Assembly: GCA_963666485.2 (NCBI GenBank)
Contig: CAXXUO010000002.1
Location: 480,001-544,000, forward strand
Source: Syntrophorhabdaceae bacterium
GTDB taxonomy: Bacteria; Desulfobacterota; Syntrophorhabdia; Syntrophorhabdales; Syntrophorhabdaceae
Direction: 5' to 3'
DNA: 64,000 bases
Part shown: piece after piece, positions 431 to 10,013 of the stretch
Layout: every line of letters starts with the position of its first letter
Numbering within the stretch: the first letter of the stretch is position 1
Position numbers and translations under genes: made by a program
The notes under the pieces: model-generated
What the model was told of the DNA's origin: nothing
Database searches by the model: none
What the model saw: the letters and a program-made list of their open reading frames with translations, nothing else

Positions 431-507
<77 letters not shown>

Positions 508-624: not shown

Positions 625-2589
625 ATGAAAATAAAACGACGGCATGGCACGTATTTTATCGGAATCGGCGTCACCATTATATTCATCGTGCTTGCCCTTA
701 TAAGATTCCTGCCATTTGAGCGCCTCGAATTGCTTCTTTACGATGTGCGCTACCAGCTTCGGGGTAAATCCCCGGCGCCCGCAGAAATTGTCATTGTCGG
801 GATCGATGACCGGAGCCTGCAAGCTATAGGAAGATGGCCCTGGGACCGGGACAAGATGGCCGATCTCGTAACCCGGGTAAATTCGCTGGGGGCGCGGGTC
901 ATCATGCTCGATCTCATTTTCAGCGAACCATCCCCCCATGATGCCAACCTGGCAAAGGCCGTTAAACAGAAAGGAAACGTCGTCCTGCCTTTCGTTTTCG
1001 ATTTCGAGGGAAATCCGTCTTCGCGCATGGACGATGCCTTTCTCGACAATGCCTTCCTTGTGGTCAAGAATGAGAACCTTTTCAACATACACAGGCCTAT
1101 AAAAGCCAAAGGCGTCCTTCTGCCGATTCCCGCATTTGGGCAAGGCGCCGGGGCAATGGGATACATCAATATGCTCCCCGATGCGGATGGGAAGCTTCGG
1201 TGGGAACCTCTCGCCATAGAATACGAAGGCCAGCTTTATCCCTCCATGGATCTGCAGGTCGCCCGGATGTATAAAGGGATCTCCCCGGCAGAAATGAGCA
1301 TTAACGCCACCGATTCGGTCACTTTAGGAAAGTCCGTTCTGAAGACCGACCCGTTCGGAAAGATGCTTATTCCCTATTACGGTCCTCACGATACATTTCC
1401 CATCATCTCCGCCCTCGACATATTTGAAGGAAAAGTCGATCCCGGATCGATCCGTGACAAGATCGTACTCATCGGCCCGACGGCGGTCGGGATACACGAC
1501 AAGATCGTGAGCCCCTCTTCGGCCCTCATGTACGGCGTGGAAAAACATGCACACATGATCGGCGCTATCCTGCACGGGCAAAATATCCGGTTCGTCGGCC
1601 GGCTGATGAATATCATGGTCATCCTTCTTGTCGGAATTATCTTCACGTTGTTCATGGTTAACCTGCGGGCCGTCACGGGCGCCGCCATGGCGGCTGTCTT
1701 CATAATCGTTCTTTTTACCACCGGGTATATCCTGTTCTTCATATCGCGGCTCTGGATAGATATCAGCTATGCGGGCAATGCGGTCATTCTCATATATTTC
1801 GTGGCGACTGCCTACCGGTACGCAACGGAAGAGCGCTACGCCCGGCAGATACGGAGCATGTTCTCGAGTTATGTCACGGAAAAGATAGTCAACGAACTCA
1901 TCAAGAACCCGGACCTCGCCAAGCTCGGTGGTGAAAAACGGGAAGTGACGGTGCTCTTTTCCGACGTCAAGGGGTTTACAAACTTCTCGGAGCATCATTC
2001 CCCGGAACAGGTCGTCGCCATCCTCAATGAATACCTGACGGAAATGACGAACATCATCATCCGCTGGGACGGCACGCTCGATAAATTCGTCGGGGACATG
2101 ATCGTTGCCTTCTGGGGCGCACCCCTTAACCAGCCTGACCATGCCGAACTGGCTATAAAATGTACCTTGCATATGAAACAGCGGCTTGCCCAATTGCGGG
2201 AGAACTGGATGAAGCAGGGGCGAGTCCCTCTCGATGCAGGCTTCGGGATCAATACCGGCGAGGTACTCGTGGGAAACATCGGTGCCGAAGGAAAAAAAAT
2301 GGACTACACTGTCATCGGGGACAACGTGAACCTCGGTTCACGCGTGGAAGGATTGACCCGTAAATACGGCTGCGACCTGATTATCACGGAGGGTACGCTC
2401 AACAAGATCCGGACGCAGCTCGAAGAAAACAAATTTGGCCACATGCTTGTGCGCGGCCTCGATATTGTCGCGGTGAAGGGGAAAGCGGAACCGGTCCGCA
2501 TCTACGAGGTGTCCTCCCTGGACGAGGGGAGCAGCTGCCAGATAATAGAATGTGAAGAGAAAGAGGCCACAGTCTTTAAAGAAAAATAG
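625..2589 (+). CDS. CHASE2-domain class III adenylate/guanylate cyclase (membrane-bound)
   Basis: N-terminal TM; CHASE2 motifs (IVIVGIDDRSLQAIGRWPWDR, PDADGKLR, DKIVLIG, GVEKHA); three TMs; cyclase motifs VLFSDVKGFT, DKFVGD, GINTG, YTVIGDNVNLGSRVEG, VKGK. The upstream ORF extension overlaps the tRNA, so the start is set at ATG 625. Confidence 0.93.
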   Translation: MKIKRRHGTYFIGIGVTIIFIVLALIRFLPFERLELLLYDVRYQLRGKSPAPAEIVIVGIDDRSLQAIGRWPWDRDKMADLVTRVNSLGARVIMLDLIFSEPSPHDANLAKAVKQKGNVVLPFVFDFEGNPSSRMDDAFLDNAFLVVKNENLFNIHRPIKAKGVLLPIPAFGQGAGAMGYINMLPDADGKLRWEPLAIEYEGQLYPSMDLQVARMYKGISPAEMSINATDSVTLGKSVLKTDPFGKMLIPYYGPHDTFPIISALDIFEGKVDPGSIRDKIVLIGPTAVGIHDKIVSPSSALMYGVEKHAHMIGAILHGQNIRFVGRLMNIMVILLVGIIFTLFMVNLRAVTGAAMAAVFIIVLFTTGYILFFISRLWIDISYAGNAVILIYFVATAYRYATEERYARQIRSMFSSYVTEKIVNELIKNPDLAKLGGEKREVTVLFSDVKGFTNFSEHHSPEQVVAILNEYLTEMTNIIIRWDGTLDKFVGDMIVAFWGAPLNQPDHAELAIKCTLHMKQRLAQLRENWMKQGRVPLDAGFGINTGEVLVGNIGAEGKKMDYTVIGDNVNLGSRVEGLTRKYGCDLIITEGTLNKIRTQLEENKFGHMLVRGLDIVAVKGKAEPVRIYEVSSLDEGSSCQIIECEEKEATVFKEK

Positions 2590-2612
2590 ATCCCCGAAAA
2601 TCTACCTGTATT

Positions 2613-4238
2613 TCAGAACCGGGTCCCGGGTGCATACGCCTTGCCGGACGCTGTGCCATTAAGGGTGGAACCTGATGTGTATGTACCGTTGGCTTTACCG
2701 TCAAAAGCAGTTTGCAGCTGATTATATGGCGGAGACCCCATTTTTCCGGCGGGTACGTTGCCGTTCAACACTGTGCCGGTCCATTGCACACCATTACAAG
2801 AATCGAACCTGAAGGTGGCGGTCGACCCTACAGGAGAAGAAGATGTCATCGCATACGTGCTCCCGGCTGCGGATGACGGGACTATCCCGCCAACCCGCGC
2901 AGTCCAGGAATAAGGGGCCGCGCCGGCACCGGTCCCCCAGAATCTGATCTGACTGAGGGTTAAGCTGTACGGACTCCCCATCCAGTAGATGCTCGATATG
3001 GCGCCTACCTGGATCGTTTGCGTCACGACCGGGTCCTGTGTGAGGGTGCTCGGCACGACGCCTGATGCAGTTCCGTTGATACTCCCTGTTCCTGCGACAA
3101 CACCGCCGAACGTGCCCGAAGCCGTCCCGCTGAATGAAAAAGCCTGTTTGTAACCTCCAACGCCTGTAGGAGCCGAACCGTTGGAAATGGTCGCGTTCCA
3201 TGTACCGCTATATTCACCGGTGTCGGAGCCGCCATTAACATTGACAAAAGCCGACGTGCCGTTTCCGCTCGCAATGAAAGCGAATCCATTACGCGTTCCG
3301 CCGTGGAAATTCCAGTAATTGCCCGTGACGGAATCCGCCTGCCAGATCGTCGGCTGACCGGTCATGCTGGGACCGTAGAATTTGACATTGTTAATGGATA
3401 CTGTGATACCCGTTTCAGAATTCCCGATCCCGCCCGTCATATACGGGACACTCCCCACGAAGACGTTCGGAATCGTCGTCAATATCGTCGGGGGAGGCGT
3501 GGTGGTGAATGTCTCGCTTATGGGATTCGCCATGGCCGTCTGGACCACGATATTGTTCGGCCCTGCGACGCTCGTACCCGGGCCGGTGCCGGGTGCAGGA
3601 CCACCTGACCCTCCGACGTACGATACATTGCCGGGGACGGGGCGCGAGGGCATACCGCCAAAACCGACAACGAAGGAGACGAAACCGGCGCTGACATTCT
3701 GTACGATCCCCGGCTGGTTCGGGTTATAGAAGTAACCACGTCCTGTCGAGAAGAAAAGGCCTGTTATCATCTGGGCAAAGCCCACGGTCATCCCGGAGCC
3801 GCGGATGCCGGCGACGGCATTGGGTGTATGGACCTCGAACTTGTTCCCTTCCGCGAAGGACGATACCTTTTTGACGAATTCCTGGCTCGATACTGCCTCG
3901 ACCTTGCCCCGGTCCATCTTCATGACCTGGTTGCTCCGGGTCCCGTCATCGGAATACTGACTTATCTGGATGCGGGTTGCCGGGTGTATCCTGAGGATGT
4001 TCTTGTTGAAGAACGTTATTTCAGCCCGTGAGTTCGTCTTGGCACGGAAGATGTCCCCGACGTCGACGTTGTCCCCGGGGGACACGTTGCCGACCGTGCT
4101 CTGCCCGGCTTTCAGGACATCGACCCTGCCTTCGAGCTTCGTGATCTTTCCGACGGGGGCGGCATTAACGAGGATAGGCAGGAGGAATAGAAGAAAGGCC
4201 AGAAATAAAATTGCTCTTACATTTAATGTTTGCAACAT
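2613..4238 (-). CDS. Secreted FecR-domain protein with two C-terminal beta-rich repeats (paralog 1)
   Basis: Signal peptide (VNA/APVGK), FecR motifs (GD.FRAKTNSRAEITF, FEVHTPNAVAGIRG), Pro/Thr linker, two Gly/Thr/Ser-rich repeats ending GTASG; GAGGAGG RBS. Confidence 0.85.
   Translation of the reverse strand: MLQTLNVRAILFLAFLLFLLPILVNAAPVGKITKLEGRVDVLKAGQSTVGNVSPGDNVDVGDIFRAKTNSRAEITFFNKNILRIHPATRIQISQYSDDGTRSNQVMKMDRGKVEAVSSQEFVKKVSSFAEGNKFEVHTPNAVAGIRGSGMTVGFAQMITGLFFSTGRGYFYNPNQPGIVQNVSAGFVSFVVGFGGMPSRPVPGNVSYVGGSGGPAPGTGPGTSVAGPNNIVVQTAMANPISETFTTTPPPTILTTIPNVFVGSVPYMTGGIGNSETGITVSINNVKFYGPSMTGQPTIWQADSVTGNYWNFHGGTRNGFAFIASGNGTSAFVNVNGGSDTGEYSGTWNATISNGSAPTGVGGYKQAFSFSGTASGTFGGVVAGTGSINGTASGVVPSTLTQDPVVTQTIQVGAISSIYWMGSPYSLTLSQIRFWGTGAGAAPYSWTARVGGIVPSSAAGSTYAMTSSSPVGSTATFRFDSCNGVQWTGTVLNGNVPAGKMGSPPYNQLQTAFDGKANGTYTSGSTLNGTASGKAYAPGTRF
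3438..4164. repeat. 727-bp direct repeat, copy A (constant FecR cassette of paralog 1)
   Basis: Matches 6584-7310 at offset 3146 with no difference seen by eye; the ORF track also reports identical shadow ORFs in both copies. Confidence 0.9.
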
Positions 4239-4349
4239 TTTTCAGCCTCCTCATACAGACTTTTCTTCGCCAAAAATACGGCCCATGTCACGAACCAACG
4301 ACTTTATTGTCCTTATATATTTTTATCGTAACACGATTTATCGTTTTTG

Positions 4350-5534
4350 TTAAGGGTATGCTTTTCCCGAGGCTGTACCCGTACTAATACTGCGGCTGCC
4401 GCTTACCGTATACGTACCCGAGGCCTGTCCGTCGAACCTCGTCGCTGTCTGGTTATAAGGAAGAGCCCCCATTCCGCCGGCGGGCACATATCCATTCGTC
4501 ACTGAATTGGTCCACGATCCGGTGGTGGGTGTTATGGCAGTTGAGGAAGTCATCGTAAGAGTAGCGGTTGTCCTTGGACTCCCGCCTGACACGGGTGCAG
4601 GTACATGGGGACTTCCGGTAGCCCTATCCCCATAAATCAGCGCGGACCATGCATAGGGTAATCCATTCACGCTCGATCCCCAGAATTTTATATCGTACAT
4701 CTTGACATAGTTATAATACGGTGAACCGCCTGTTACACTGATTTGCGATACATAGCCCACCAAGACATTCGGCGTCGCGGGGGGCGGTGTGGTGGTTAAT
4801 GTCTGGTTTATGGGATTTGCTATGGCCGTCTGGACGACGATATTATTCGGCCCGGCTACGGTCATTGTGCCAGTACCGGTGCCGGGTGCAGGGCCTCCTC
4901 CTGGCCCGGCGACATACGACACGTTGCCGGGAACGGGGCGTGATGGCAGTCCGCCTGTACCGATAATAAAGGAGACAAAGCCGGCACTGATATTCTGTAC
5001 GATCCCCGGCTGGTTCGGGTTGTAAAGGTAACCCCGCCCTGTTGAAAAGAAGACGCCTGTCGCCATGTTTGCGAAAGCAACGGTCATGCCGGAACCACGG
5101 ATACCTACCGCTGCATTGGGTGTATGGACCTCGAACTTGTTCCCTTCTGCGAAGGACGATACCTTTTTGACGAATTCCTGGCTCGATACCGCCTCGACCT
5201 TGCCCCGGTCCATCTTCATGACCTGGTCGCTCCGGGTCCCGTCATCGGAATACTGACTTATCTGGATACGGGTTGCCGGGTGTATCCTGAGGATGTTCTT
5301 GTTGAAGAACGTTATTTCAGCCCGTGAGTTCGTCTTGGCACGGAAGATGTCCCCGACGTCGACGTTGTCCCCGGGGGACACGTTGCCGACCGTGCTCTGC
5401 CCGGCTTTCAGGACATCGACCCTGCCTTCGAGCTTCGTGATCTTTCCGACGGGGGCGGCATTAACGAGGATAGGCAGGAGGAATAAAAAAAAGATCAGGA
5501 AGCCAACAAATCTCAAAGTGAACCTTTGCAACAT
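4350..5534 (-). CDS. Secreted FecR-domain protein with one C-terminal beta-rich repeat (paralog 2)
   Basis: Same N-terminal FecR module, a divergent linker and a single C-terminal repeat ending GTASGKAYP. Confidence 0.85.
   Translation of the reverse strand: MLQRFTLRFVGFLIFFLFLLPILVNAAPVGKITKLEGRVDVLKAGQSTVGNVSPGDNVDVGDIFRAKTNSRAEITFFNKNILRIHPATRIQISQYSDDGTRSDQVMKMDRGKVEAVSSQEFVKKVSSFAEGNKFEVHTPNAAVGIRGSGMTVAFANMATGVFFSTGRGYLYNPNQPGIVQNISAGFVSFIIGTGGLPSRPVPGNVSYVAGPGGGPAPGTGTGTMTVAGPNNIVVQTAIANPINQTLTTTPPPATPNVLVGYVSQISVTGGSPYYNYVKMYDIKFWGSSVNGLPYAWSALIYGDRATGSPHVPAPVSGGSPRTTATLTMTSSTAITPTTGSWTNSVTNGYVPAGGMGALPYNQTATRFDGQASGTYTVSGSRSISTGTASGKAYP
5113..5485. repeat. Partial third copy of the FecR cassette (373 bp, paralog 2)
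   Basis: Matches 3817-4189 at offset 1296 with 4 substitutions seen. Confidence 0.85.
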
Positions 5535-5764
5535 TCTTTCTCCTTATTTTTCCCTGTTCAAAGGACGGTTATTTTTCAGATATTGCCCTGCGGGATGCCT
5601 GTTAGCACATTTTTCTATAAACCGCCGACATGGCTGGACCGCCACAAAAGACTCCCGCGTAGACCTTTTTGCAGCCGCAACGACGAGCAATGTGTGCGAA
5701 GTAGATCGAAGCCGGTTAGTGGGAGCCTCTTTTTCTTAAACTCGTGACCACCGGTTTTTTATAA

Positions 5765-7381
5765 TCAACGACCAGTACCCCCTGAAGCGGTACCCACAAT
5801 TGAGTTGTAACCACCACTCGTCGTATATGTACCCGCCGCCCTTCCATTAAACCTTGTTGCTGCCTGATTATTTGGGGTGGCACCCATTCCACCGGCGGGA
5901 ACTACGCCGTTGTTCACGTACGCCGTCCACGATCCGCCGCTCATCGAATTTAAATTCATCGTCGCGGTCGATGTCGGTGTCCCGCCTGACAGGTTATATG
6001 CTGTCGTGTAGCTTGACGTCGATCTGCTGCCATCCACCTTTCCGGTCCATGCGAAGGGTTGGGCACCGACGCTCGGTCCCCAGAATTTTACCTGGTACAG
6101 GGAGATAAAGTCATAATACGGGGGGCCGGACGAAGCGGACATACTTGCTATGGCGCCCACCTGTACGGCCTGGGTCACTATCGGGTCCTGTGTGAGGGTA
6201 CTCGGCACGACGCCTGATGAGATACCGGACAGCGACCCGGTATTAAGCCAGTTCGCGGCCCATGTCCCCGAGGCGGTCCCGCTGAATGTGAAAGGCTGCC
6301 TGTACTGCCCCACACCCGTCGGCGCGCTGCCGTTGGCGACCGTTGCCGTCCACGTCCCGCTATAATCCGTGTCGCTTCCCGTTGCCCGGACATATGCGGA
6401 CATGCCTCCTCCGGAAACCATAAAACCAAAACCCCCCGGAGTCGGCCCGGGGATATTATAAAATCTTCCCGTGACAGAATCGGCCTGCCATGTTGTCGGC
6501 TGACCGGTCATGCTGGGACCGTAGAATTTGACATTGTTAATGGATATATTCAAGCCGATATCGGCGTTGCCTACACCGCCCGACATATACGGGACACTCC
6601 CCACGAAGACGTTCGGAATCGTCGTCAATATCGTCGGGGGAGGCGTGGTGGTGAATGTCTCGCTTATGGGATTCGCCATGGCCGTCTGGACCACGATATT
6701 GTTCGGCCCTGCGACGCTCGTACCCGGGCCGGTGCCGGGTGCAGGACCACCTGACCCTCCGACGTACGATACATTGCCGGGGACGGGGCGCGAGGGCATA
6801 CCGCCAAAACCGACAACGAAGGAGACGAAACCGGCGCTGACATTCTGTACGATCCCCGGCTGGTTCGGGTTATAGAAGTAACCACGTCCTGTCGAGAAGA
6901 AAAGGCCTGTTATCATCTGGGCAAAGCCCACGGTCATCCCGGAGCCGCGGATGCCGGCGACGGCATTGGGTGTATGGACCTCGAACTTGTTCCCTTCCGC
7001 GAAGGACGATACCTTTTTGACGAATTCCTGGCTCGATACTGCCTCGACCTTGCCCCGGTCCATCTTCATGACCTGGTTGCTCCGGGTCCCGTCATCGGAA
7101 TACTGACTTATCTGGATGCGGGTTGCCGGGTGTATCCTGAGGATGTTCTTGTTGAAGAACGTTATTTCAGCCCGTGAGTTCGTCTTGGCACGGAAGATGT
7201 CCCCGACGTCGACGTTGTCCCCGGGGGACACGTTGCCGACCGTGCTCTGCCCGGCTTTCAGGACATCGACCCTGCCTTCGAGCTTCGTGATCTTTCCGAC
7301 GGGGGCGGCAAAGGCAAGATTTGCGAAAGTAAATAGAATTGCACACACCAGAAAGAGGTACTGCAAAATTATTCTTTTCAT
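5765..7381 (-). CDS. Secreted FecR-domain protein with two C-terminal beta-rich repeats (paralog 3)
   Basis: Signal peptide (AFA/APVGK); FecR module and linker identical to paralog 1; divergent C-terminal repeats; GAGGTG RBS. Confidence 0.85.
   Translation of the reverse strand: MKRIILQYLFLVCAILFTFANLAFAAPVGKITKLEGRVDVLKAGQSTVGNVSPGDNVDVGDIFRAKTNSRAEITFFNKNILRIHPATRIQISQYSDDGTRSNQVMKMDRGKVEAVSSQEFVKKVSSFAEGNKFEVHTPNAVAGIRGSGMTVGFAQMITGLFFSTGRGYFYNPNQPGIVQNVSAGFVSFVVGFGGMPSRPVPGNVSYVGGSGGPAPGTGPGTSVAGPNNIVVQTAMANPISETFTTTPPPTILTTIPNVFVGSVPYMSGGVGNADIGLNISINNVKFYGPSMTGQPTTWQADSVTGRFYNIPGPTPGGFGFMVSGGGMSAYVRATGSDTDYSGTWTATVANGSAPTGVGQYRQPFTFSGTASGTWAANWLNTGSLSGISSGVVPSTLTQDPIVTQAVQVGAIASMSASSGPPYYDFISLYQVKFWGPSVGAQPFAWTGKVDGSRSTSSYTTAYNLSGGTPTSTATMNLNSMSGGSWTAYVNNGVVPAGGMGATPNNQAATRFNGRAAGTYTTSGGYNSIVGTASGGTGR
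6584..7310. repeat. 727-bp direct repeat, copy B (constant FecR cassette of paralog 3)
   Basis: Identical by eye to 3438-4164. Confidence 0.9.
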
Positions 7382-7439
7382 CGCATCACCTCAAGACTAT
7401 AAATACGTTATTGCTTCACAAAGCCGCCTGTGCTTCGGT

Positions 7440-9029
7440 TTAAAACCGGTACTCAATACCCAGTCCATAGATTTCACGGGTATAATCGTATAAATCTATG
7501 TTCGATTTATTCCTCCAGTAATTATACTGCAGAACAAGATCGGTATTCTTGTAAATGCCGTAGAGAAGGGCAAAATTGAAGCTGTAAATCTCATCCCGTC
7601 TTGTATCGCCAAAATAGGTATTGTCGTACTTGTAATTTACGAAAGCCGCGTCCAGTGAACCCTGGGCCCTTAACGTGCCTATTATCGGGTATAGCGCATC
7701 GACACCGAACCGGTTTTCAGTATTCACCCAGTTGCGCCCTATCGTATCGTCCTGGGCATACAGGTATCTCAGGGTCACGAATGCTTTGCTGTCTTTGAAG
7801 GTATACGTCCAGCCAAGGCTCCCGGAATAACGGTTCCCGCTTCGGTCCTCACCGTCGGGAGGCTCCGGGTGCAGTTCGGTATCGAAGTATTTCTTACGCA
7901 TGTACCCGACGCTTACCTCGCCGTAACTGTTTGGCGTGGTAATGAACCTGAACGTCGGGGTTACAGATTTTGCTTCAAGATAACGCGTCTGGTTCCACCA
8001 GTTCAACTCCTGGTAAAACATGTTCCCTTTTACACCCTGGAGACTGACATAGGAATATGTAAGCGGTATACTGAATCCGAAGCGGTCCCATGAGTAGCCG
8101 GGAACAACGCTGAAGGTGTTCGTCATGTTGTTATACTCGGTCAAGTTGCCCCGCGACCCGTCGGCCCGGTTATACATCTTGCCGAGATACCGGTCGGTAT
8201 AGAACGAATAATATGCCGAAAGACTGAACGGTGTTTTGTAAGAAAATGGCGCGGTATAACCAATCCTGGCACCGAAATTAAGGGCGCTGTCCGCCTGCCC
8301 CGACATGAGGTCGGTCATGGGGCCGGCCCCTACAATCGGCACGTTCGTATCGTACTTGTATCCCGTACCGACAGCGAACCGCCAGACCTTTTCGCGTTCC
8401 GCCCTGTCGGCGACCTGTTTCTCGTAGTCCCGTGCGTATAATGCCGCGTCCGTCGCGGGATCGAGGTTGATCGTTGCGCGCAGGCGCGACTGGGCTTCCT
8501 TATATTTCCCCTGTTCCGTGTATATGCCGGCGATCTGAAGCTCGGCCTGCTGTGATAATTTAGGGTCAAGTTTTTTGGCCGTCTCAAACGACTGGATCGC
8601 CTCATCGGGCTTTTTTGCCTTGGCAAAAACCATGCCTTTCAGGAAATTGAAGCGGGCCGTATTTATTCCTCCCTTATCACCAACCTCGATCCACTTTTGA
8701 GCCTCTGCCAGGTTGCCCGTATGGTACAGGACATCGACGAGCTCAACGACGGCGTCATCGATGCGTGGAGTTAAGGTCGCGGCATCCCTGAAATAGGGAA
8801 TTGCCTCATTGTATTTTTCCATAACCTTATATGTGAGGCCGATCTGATAGGCTATCCGGGACGATGTCCTGTCCGCTTCTCTCGCTTTAAGGAAATACGC
8901 CAGGGCCTCTTCGTAATTCTCCTGTTGGAGTTCCTTGAGGCCCTCATCAAAGGCAGTCTGGGCGCGCAGGCAAGGAACCAGTGTAAACAGGAGAATAGCG
9001 GCCAGGGAAATCATGGCTATTTTTTTCAT
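7440..9029 (-). CDS. TPR-repeat outer-membrane beta-barrel protein (Slam/DUF560-like)
   Basis: Signal peptide; N-terminal TPRs (YEEALAYFLKA, YNEAIPYFRDA, YKEAQSRLRA); then amphipathic beta-strands starting at WRFAVGTGYKYDTNV; C-terminal BAM-type signature YGLGIEYRF. Confidence 0.8.
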   Translation of the reverse strand: MKKIAMISLAAILLFTLVPCLRAQTAFDEGLKELQQENYEEALAYFLKAREADRTSSRIAYQIGLTYKVMEKYNEAIPYFRDAATLTPRIDDAVVELVDVLYHTGNLAEAQKWIEVGDKGGINTARFNFLKGMVFAKAKKPDEAIQSFETAKKLDPKLSQQAELQIAGIYTEQGKYKEAQSRLRATINLDPATDAALYARDYEKQVADRAEREKVWRFAVGTGYKYDTNVPIVGAGPMTDLMSGQADSALNFGARIGYTAPFSYKTPFSLSAYYSFYTDRYLGKMYNRADGSRGNLTEYNNMTNTFSVVPGYSWDRFGFSIPLTYSYVSLQGVKGNMFYQELNWWNQTRYLEAKSVTPTFRFITTPNSYGEVSVGYMRKKYFDTELHPEPPDGEDRSGNRYSGSLGWTYTFKDSKAFVTLRYLYAQDDTIGRNWVNTENRFGVDALYPIIGTLRAQGSLDAAFVNYKYDNTYFGDTRRDEIYSFNFALLYGIYKNTDLVLQYNYWRNKSNIDLYDYTREIYGLGIEYRF

Positions 9030-9145
9030 GGAACCCCCGTTTAGCCAGTAAATTATTGTTGGTATTAAAAGCTTTTAACAAATCTTTACCTGGTTGGCAA
9101 GGGAAATAGTAGGGAAATCGCTGAAAAAAAACCGCAACGGGAAAT

Positions 9146-9913
9146 TCAGACCGTGAGCGTCTCGTCCTGCTTCAATATTCGTATGTTACCCCTGCCTGAC
9201 CGGGTAAATTCCCGGACGATCTCCCTGCCGAATATCGGCTTGATGTGGGTGACATAAAAAATTCTGTCACTAAGGTCATAGCGATCAATCGTTTCCATGA
9301 GGATCGACGGGGTCATATGCCCTGATATCAACGCGAGGTCTTTCAGGCGGTCCGGGAATGAAACATCCGCGATAATAAAACGAATGTCCTTTTCATCGCG
9401 GGCAAACTCCCAGAACCTCTTCGTCGGCCCCGTATCCGCGGTGAACATGAACCCCTGGCCATCGGGCTGCCGCACCACGTATCCCACCGTGTAGACGGTA
9501 TGGGTCATGAGGATAGGTTTTACTGTGATGCCGTCCAGGTCTGATAACTTTTCGAGGGGTATATCCCGCAGCTTTATTATCGCGTCCATCGCGGAGGGGA
9601 TGACGGTAAAGTCAGGCCATATCAGGTTGTTAAGCAGGTTGTTGGTTATGATATCGAGAACACGGGCGGCACTGACGAGCTCGATGCTGTGCCCTCCCAT
9701 CATGGCAAGTTCATCAACGAGCGGGAAAAGCCCTTTGAGGTGGTCCATGTGGGTATGGGTAACCAGGATGTGCCTTATTTCCAGGAGATCTTTCCGGCGG
9801 ATCGAGTCCGTGGTTGTCCCTGCGTCGATAAGCAGGGACCTGTCAATCAGAAAACAGGTCGTCCTATGTCTGCCGACATAATTGCCGGAACAGCCTAGGA
9901 TTTTTATGTTCAT
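9146..9913 (-). CDS. Metallo-beta-lactamase-fold 3',5'-cyclic-nucleotide phosphodiesterase (class II-like)
   Basis: MNIKILGCSG start, LIDAGT, THTHMDH metal motif, N..IWPDF motif, HTV, FTADTGPT, GHMTP, THIKP. Confidence 0.82.
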   Translation of the reverse strand: MNIKILGCSGNYVGRHRTTCFLIDRSLLIDAGTTTDSIRRKDLLEIRHILVTHTHMDHLKGLFPLVDELAMMGGHSIELVSAARVLDIITNNLLNNLIWPDFTVIPSAMDAIIKLRDIPLEKLSDLDGITVKPILMTHTVYTVGYVVRQPDGQGFMFTADTGPTKRFWEFARDEKDIRFIIADVSFPDRLKDLALISGHMTPSILMETIDRYDLSDRIFYVTHIKPIFGREIVREFTRSGRGNIRILKQDETLTV

Positions 9914-10013
9914 TAGCTGATTGTACGTGATGCCCTGCAAACGTGTCAAGACATTGTAATCAATAATGTAAAACCCGCAAGATTGCGAAACGATATATTT
10001 TGGCAACTATCAC

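Follow-up and report, generated by a model that had tools for sequence, protein, structure and literature searches.

In Sinorhizobium meliloti, NsrA is a single chain of 1,200 aa that combines an N-terminal FecR domain, tetratricopeptide repeats (TPRs) and a β-barrel of ~600 aa; it is encoded next to cyaK and is described, in the available text of PMC7529298 and also PMC13001267, as the signal receptor required together with the CHASE2 cyclase CyaK. In Burkholderia, an operon encodes a LysM-FecR protein and a CHASE2 histidine kinase (PMC5192318), and the available portion of the same paper gives the signals recognised by CHASE2 domains as unknown at its date. A Campylobacterota cluster of genes for a CHASE2 adenylate cyclase, a cyclic AMP (cAMP) phosphodiesterase (PDE), a FecR-domain protein and a TPR protein has been proposed to form one pathway (Mo et al. 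2022; PMC9239204, available sections). In the type 11 secretion system (T11SS; Slam, DUF560, PF04575), whose cargo includes TbpB, fHbp and hemophilin-type proteins, the Slam export of TbpB requires Skp (PMC9090332, accessible text). T11SS cargo beyond host-associated proteobacteria is largely unassigned. Here we describe a block in which a CHASE2 cyclase gene faces a run of five genes for a PDE-like hydrolase, a TPR/barrel protein and three FecR-domain proteins. It lies in a 64,000-nucleotide stretch of DNA (hereafter the window) from a Syntrophorhabdaceae bacterium (GenBank assembly GCA_963666485.2, contig CAXXUO010000002.1, positions 480,001 to 544,000 of the forward strand). The block may be a Slam- or type 11-like export unit that doubles as the input of the CHASE2 cyclase, with its cargo tethered by a periplasmic FecR head, a reading to which we give an even chance.

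The gene order on the minus strand is metallo-β-lactamase-fold (MBL) hydrolase, TPR/barrel protein, F1, F2 and F3, the last three encoding proteins with an N-terminal FecR domain (head) and one or two C-terminal domains (tips). Open reading frames (ORFs) and Pfam matches place all of the parts named in an earlier note on this DNA, i.e. a CHASE2 cyclase, an MBL PDE-like protein, a TPR/barrel protein and three FecR genes, where that note had put them (Table 1), and the 23-bp interval that it had reported between the convergent stops of the cyclase and last FecR genes was found at 2590-2612. In the locus comparison the same gene order was found repeatedly across the genus and the family, and the block is therefore not a chance arrangement. 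In the genome collection, the nearest relatives carry the labels Syntrophorhabdus or Syntrophorhabdaceae; where they need to be told apart, genomes and loci are given by G and L numbers.

Co-occurrence was counted in 69 family genomes, which are related and thus not independent, and the presence lists of heads and barrels were compared by eye. The barrel and FecR-head profiles matched the same 42 of the 69 genomes, and a FecR-head gene directly follows the barrel gene for 37 of the 38 distinct barrels with downstream sequence (loci of the same order, the distant loci L118-L140 being left out). A cyclase orthologue is present in 48 of the 69 genomes, including 41 of the 42 FecR-positive ones, and in the 42nd the cyclase gene is cut at a contig end. 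Head, barrel and cyclase are jointly missing from two genera (17 genomes). These counts and the recurrent order bear out the co-conservation of the block genes that had been supposed. The cyclase gene is unlinked in G032, G064 and G022 and occurs alone in G061, G063 and G034. In G012, a second barrel gene is followed by a gene for a tip-bearing protein without a FecR head, and no CHASE2 gene was found in the 20 kb examined. In G078 (100% complete) and G079 (98%, one contig), a short tip-less FecR gene lies beside the cyclase gene, and neither a barrel nor a tip was found in these two genomes. Because of these partial losses, the data fit a pairing in which the tip goes with the barrel and FecR with the cyclase.

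The barrel protein is predicted to belong to the Slam/DUF560 family. It matches SlipAM/DUF560 with 26.3 bits (cut-off, 22; profile positions 1-278 of 288) and BBP2_2 with 34.2 bits, its C-terminal residues are GIEYRF, ~14 strands were counted by eye on the alignment, and the nearest clusters in the ESM Atlas are SlipAM/DUF560 (0.95-0.96). The family is divergent: 8 of 28 homologues reach E≤0.001 for SlipAM and 18 for BBP2_2. A PDB sequence search with the barrel domain gave nothing significant. The genome encodes a second TPR/barrel (42% identical; L001 9782-20000 and L002 1-3575, corresponding to G000:C1 871.8-885.6 kb), which is followed by a FecR-head protein of ~4,060 aa that contains Ig-like domains and many β-propeller repeats and ends in the same kind of tip. 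A VgrG-like spike gene and then a gene for DUF2169 and pentapeptide repeats lie ~6 kb beyond this giant protein (L002 9451-14943, minus strand).

Far from being unrelated sensing modules, the tips are one or two repeats of one conserved, export-signal-like C-terminal domain, which is absent from Pfam. The last tip of F1 is modelled as an eight-strand barrel with a predicted local distance difference test score (pLDDT) of 95, one face of the tips is conserved as hydrophobic or small and another is of Ser/Thr type, and the last residue is non-aromatic. Because the outer face is polar and the last residue non-aromatic, the tip is confidently predicted to be a soluble eight-strand barrel, and an outer-membrane-inserted barrel was ruled out. 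Foldseek gave no match to the tip at E≤0.001, the ESM Atlas no usable hit and a PDB sequence search nothing significant. The tip domain was found in 558 clusters; among the 150 best representatives, at most 20 aa separate it from the C-terminus in 149, and it appears to behave like an export signal. Full-length head-bearing tip proteins (n = 67) range from 388 to 6,991 aa, and a lipobox is present in none of the 67. Passenger domains between head and tip include Ig-like, PKD and β-propeller domains, and self-BLAST revealed internal repeats in none of the six large passengers tried. In 66 proteins, the 60 residues behind the head are aromatic-poor and either charged or Pro-rich, as those of a threaded tether would be.

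Many of the family genomes with barrel and head have a dedicated Skp gene. In loci chosen around tip, head or barrel genes, a tip-bearing gene immediately precedes 13 of the 14 distinct Skp-like ORFs, and all five of those tested by profile matched OmpH. The window locus is without a Skp gene, and one is present elsewhere in the genome. At L149 (G091:C22), the tandem arrangement is barrel, cargo (2,886 aa), Skp, cargo (1,827 aa) and Skp, i.e. the cargo gene is duplicated together with the chaperone gene. FecR-head genes for proteins of 1,134-2,398 aa at L150, L152, L155 and L156 (tip detected in three), in several family genomes, are located away from any barrel gene, and this suggests that one barrel may serve dispersed cargo.

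The cyclase matches CHASE2 (E = 1e-64) and Guanylate_cyc (E = 2.5e-22) and is 30% identical to S. meliloti CyaK over 91% of the cyclase length. All six catalytic residues are kept (D447, K487, D491, T562, N569 and R573). Under the rules for class III cyclases, such residues denote an active enzyme with ATP specificity; because they are present, the protein is predicted to be an active adenylate cyclase that makes cAMP. Profile searches of the genome returned 9 class III cyclase matches and 4 CHASE2 matches, and its 12 matches to cyclic-nucleotide (cNMP)-binding domains indicate that receptors exist. The prediction of a complex between CHASE2 and the FecR head scored 0.13 against a mark of 0.32 and speaks neither for nor against contact. 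The protein adjoining another CHASE2 cyclase of the genome (L005) gave no convincing alignment with the FecR head. A further CHASE2 cyclase is encoded at L003 8451-17904 (minus strand), in a run of genes for a TPS-domain protein, CHAT-TPR, CHASE2-cyclase and DUF928. A second cyclase, with cNMP-binding, two GAF and PAS domains, is located ~4-7 kb before the window start (L008 11950-14787, minus strand), and G011 has a cyclase of similar size at the equivalent place.

The MBL protein matches Lactamase_B_2 (E = 3.5e-13) and also PDEase_II (E = 9.4e-8; 32 bits against a cut-off of 23.7). The HxHxDH motif and downstream His/Asp ligands (H53, H55, D57, H58, H138, D160, H199 and H223) are invariant in 18 of 18 aligned rows, and the best PDB relative of its profile is the yeast class II enzyme PDE1 (4OJV; E = 3.5e-14), with RNase Z next (1.8e-12). 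The earlier assignment to class II PDEs is supported, and the protein is predicted to be class II PDE-like and to hydrolyse cAMP/cGMP; its NCBIfam NF041851 score, 36 of 400 bits, is far under the cut-off. The PDE gene is present in 38 of the 42 FecR-head-positive genomes, and one genus without the other components has it in 5 of 9 genomes. Its putative sigma70-type promoter matches 11 of 12 positions. Among 30 distinct upstream sequences of homologues (three PDE ORFs having been dropped by the start pattern), 22 have a conserved TTGACA...TANNNT promoter 5-8 nt before the start codon and 1 has a Shine-Dalgarno sequence. This spacing occurs in 0 of 15 cyclase control rows, two of which are internal ATGs. 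The PDE transcript is accordingly predicted from these alignments to be leaderless. No canonical CRP site was seen by eye in the conserved promoter. In G079 (L141 8192-9226) and G078 (L142 9700-10704), a different MBL-fold gene, divergent from the cyclase gene, replaces the PDE orthologue. A PDE paralogue (~31% identical) is found at L009 8785-9558 (G000:C3); the ORFs around it look GC-rich, and the region is possibly foreign or mis-binned DNA.

F1, F2 and F3 each have a signal-peptide-like N-terminus of the cleavable type, with the FecR head directly behind it (E about 2e-7). This is unlike an anti-sigma factor of the FecIRA type, a membrane-anchored FecR encoded next to an extracytoplasmic function (ECF) sigma factor and a TonB receptor; no sigma or TonB-receptor gene is found among the block ORFs. 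A PDB sequence search with the head gave nothing significant, and the single-sequence fold of whole F1 reached a pLDDT of 31. The heads of F1 and F3 have 0 synonymous changes, and 0 changes at all, in 183 codons, and they lie within a 727-bp identical tract; the head of F2 differs from both by 27 synonymous and 14 non-synonymous codon differences, and a 192-bp stretch is identical in all three. An assembly artefact was considered and ruled out: among the short-read contigs of the source sample, three distinct 3' ends each occur at single depth and the common heads at ~2-3x depth. All three 3' ends recur, with the same order of tips, in a relative found in a second sample, which comes from another study. 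The triplet is therefore real, and no contig spanning the whole array was found among the short-read contigs listed.

The triplet is a recent, lineage-specific tandem expansion, as judged from the following comparisons. Of the other 19 genomes in the genus, 13 carry a single head gene (2 of these broken in assembly), 3 have two and none has three; in the remaining 3 (66, 74 and 96% complete) no head gene was matched. A tree built from 22 heads groups the window copies in a single clade (98/94) and places the second copies found in G008, G009 and G016 outside it. Three interchangeable FecR sensors, which had been put forward as a feature of the system, are thus not a conserved design, and most relatives manage with one gene. 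In the second-sample relative, the head stretch of F1/F3 is collapsed at double depth and 31 of its 561 bases are unlike the window; identity within each sample, yet difference between samples, fits concerted evolution of the heads. The terminal tips of the window genes are on long tree branches, and between the samples the tip-containing pieces diverge by 5-10% as against 2-4.5% for the cyclase, barrel and PDE. Gene conversion is likely to keep the heads of F1-F3 alike while the outermost tips diverge.

Table 1. Features of the block and its surroundings in the window
Feature	Position	Strand	Details
tRNA-Arg(CCG)	431..507	-	ARAGORN; divergent from cyclase, left boundary of block
Block	625..9913	cyclase (+) vs five-gene (-) run	ORF list and Pfam
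CHASE2 class III nucleotidyl cyclase, 654 aa	625..2589	+	Pfam, motif positions
F3, FecR-head protein, 541 aa	2613..4238	-	Head 3624-4160, Pro/Thr/Gly linker, tips 3054-3473 and 2634-3020
727-bp identical tract, copy in F3 (head and linker)	3438..4164	-	Identical to 6584-7310
F2, FecR-head protein, 394 aa	4350..5534	-	Head 4920-5456, linker, one tip 4356-4772
F1, FecR-head protein, 538 aa	5765..7381	-	Head 6770-7306, linker, tips 6206-6619 and 5774-6172
727-bp identical tract, copy in F1 (head and linker)	6584..7310	-	Identical to 3438-4164
TPR and outer-membrane β-barrel protein, 529 aa, Slam/DUF560-like	7440..9029	-	Pfam, ESM Atlas, alignment
MBL-fold hydrolase, class II cyclic-nucleotide PDE-like, 255 aa	9146..9913	-	Pfam, alignment
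Putative sigma70-type promoter TTGACA-N18-TACAAT	9920..9949	-	11/12 match; ends 6 nt before PDE ATG

In the proposed scheme, Sec would carry the FecR-head proteins over the inner membrane, and the eight-strand tip at the C-terminus would address them to the TPR-barrel. The cargo would likely stay threaded in the barrel, with the folded FecR head held in the periplasm behind the low-complexity linker, where it could tune the CHASE2 cyclase; the class II-like PDE would reset cAMP, and the three gene copies would provide three variant surface ends displayed on one machine. Of this scheme, the gene content, the order of domains, the co-occurrence, the C-terminal place of the tip and the low-complexity linker are observed, and the fold of the tip, the family of the barrel and the activities of the enzymes are predictions. 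We only infer export, retention, the FecR-CHASE2 contact and the direction of signalling. A fuller version, which we put forward tentatively and rate as rather less than even, is that the type 11-like channel serves as a signalling device, in which tip-led, non-lipidated cargo of 0.4 to 7 thousand residues carries the FecR head as the CHASE2 partner, surface contact is read as cAMP, and the duplicated, gene-converted cargo genes provide variant antennae of one cyclase. Several observations weigh against the tethered-cargo reading. The second barrel locus of the genome has a head, but its next gene encodes a GAF histidine kinase and no CHASE2 gene is present. Distant barrels accompany FecR proteins without a detectable tip, so the split between tip and head functions is not clean. 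The best matches of the tip in the fold search are mostly small β-barrels; TbpB_B_D is not matched, and the fold match to TbpB is not specific. In S. meliloti, furthermore, a FecR target is an output of cAMP and not a sensor (PMC5498481, available text).

This last point leads to the possibility that the cargo is an output and not an input, i.e. that the barrel exports adhesin-like proteins, surface-bound or released, whose expression or use is regulated by cAMP, hence the neighbouring cyclase and PDE genes, and that the FecR head does no more than anchor them or bind a chaperone. In S. meliloti, the Clr targets include the FecR protein SMc02177 and the TPR protein SMb20495, both dispensable for signal perception according to the part of PMC5498481 available; the giant Ig/propeller passengers are adhesin-like, the second barrel locus lacks a cyclase, the cyclase gene of several relatives is unlinked, and the 12 cNMP-binding matches offer receptors. 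In G078 and G079, however, FecR remains beside the cyclase where barrel and tip were not found, CHASE2 kinases pair with FecR genes without a cAMP link (PMC5192318, available portion), and the conserved promoter showed no canonical CRP site by eye; regulation as an output alone is fairly unlikely. A periplasmic relay without export, in which the barrel is the receptor, the FecR proteins bridge TPR and CHASE2 and the tip docks in or under the barrel, is closest to a split NsrA. The fusion of FecR, TPR and barrel in NsrA, the distant loci that pair barrels with tip-less FecR proteins, and the lack of a specific TbpB-like fold in the tip speak for such a relay, but passengers of 1,000-7,000 aa with propeller and Ig-like domains would be implausible if confined to the periplasm, a FecR-less tip protein lies behind the barrel in G012, and the NsrA barrel did not align with that of the window. 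We regard this relay as improbable.

The triplet could also be nothing more than a variation cassette, in which identical heads recombine to swap or delete exposed tips, allowing escape from phage or predators, and the copies have no distinct sensing roles. The 727-bp identity of F1 and F3 without a synonymous change, the long branches of the terminal tips and the faster divergence of the tip-containing pieces are all in keeping with this, but all three tips also occur, in unchanged order, in the relative from another study, and the listed contigs, which drop rare variants, include none with a recombination joint between copies. As the sole explanation it seems very unlikely, and it is compatible with tethered cargo and no replacement for it.

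As a local duplication and not the hallmark of a new system, the triplet accounts for little of the interest of the locus. If the tethered-cargo model were true, it would answer both the question of the CHASE2 signal and that of T11SS cargo, and the tip would define a new family of export signals that comprises at least 558 sequence clusters and, in relatives of anaerobic syntrophs, includes giant adhesin-like proteins. The three cargo proteins of the window make it convenient for tests, as each is minimal (a head, a linker, one or two tips) and all have a common head.

Compared by the description of gene types, the Campylobacterota cluster and the window share four types of genes, so that the four-gene cluster was already in print (PMC9239204, available sections). 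In that text, the TPR protein is not called a Slam-like barrel, and C-terminal export-like domains, giant passengers, Skp and tandem FecR genes do not appear. The four-gene core is therefore known, and what is added to it is the tip domain family with its giant passengers, the link to Skp and the natural dissections. The Burkholderia operon likewise has a secreted FecR-domain protein encoded directly beside a CHASE2 sensor, but its output is a kinase, its partner domain is LysM, and it is without a barrel or PDE.

The NsrA-CyaK pair resembles the window in that FecR, TPR and an outer-membrane barrel are encoded beside a CHASE2 cyclase. In the window, however, FecR and barrel are on separate genes, the fusion partner of FecR being the presumed cargo and not the barrel. 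The suggestion that the block is a split NsrA held only loosely: against the single NsrA sequence the barrel profile aligned only in the TPRs, the NsrA FecR domain aligned weakly with the window head (probability 36%), and the barrels (~600 aa and 315 aa) were unaligned.

The likeness to T11SS/Slam lies in a TPR and barrel protein that passes the SlipAM cut-off, adjacent Sec-type exported proteins that end in a predicted eight-strand soluble barrel, and the link to Skp; cargo of the window type differs in its N-terminal FecR head, its lack of a lipobox and its length of up to 7,000 aa. FecR, CHASE and cyclase are not mentioned in the available main text of the T11SS surveys searched, a Slam hemophore preprint mentions FecR once, in an unrelated context, and in the open-access literature, T11SS supplements being outside the search, no paper joining FecR, Slam/DUF560 and CHASE2 was found.

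The proposed tethered cargo follows a logic like that of adhesins of the LapA type. These type 1-secreted proteins combine a C-terminal export signal, a long passenger and an N-terminal periplasmic retention domain, and their release is controlled by c-di-GMP. The secretion machine and the retention fold are different in the window, and whereas c-di-GMP controls release in LapA, cAMP synthesis would be the output here.

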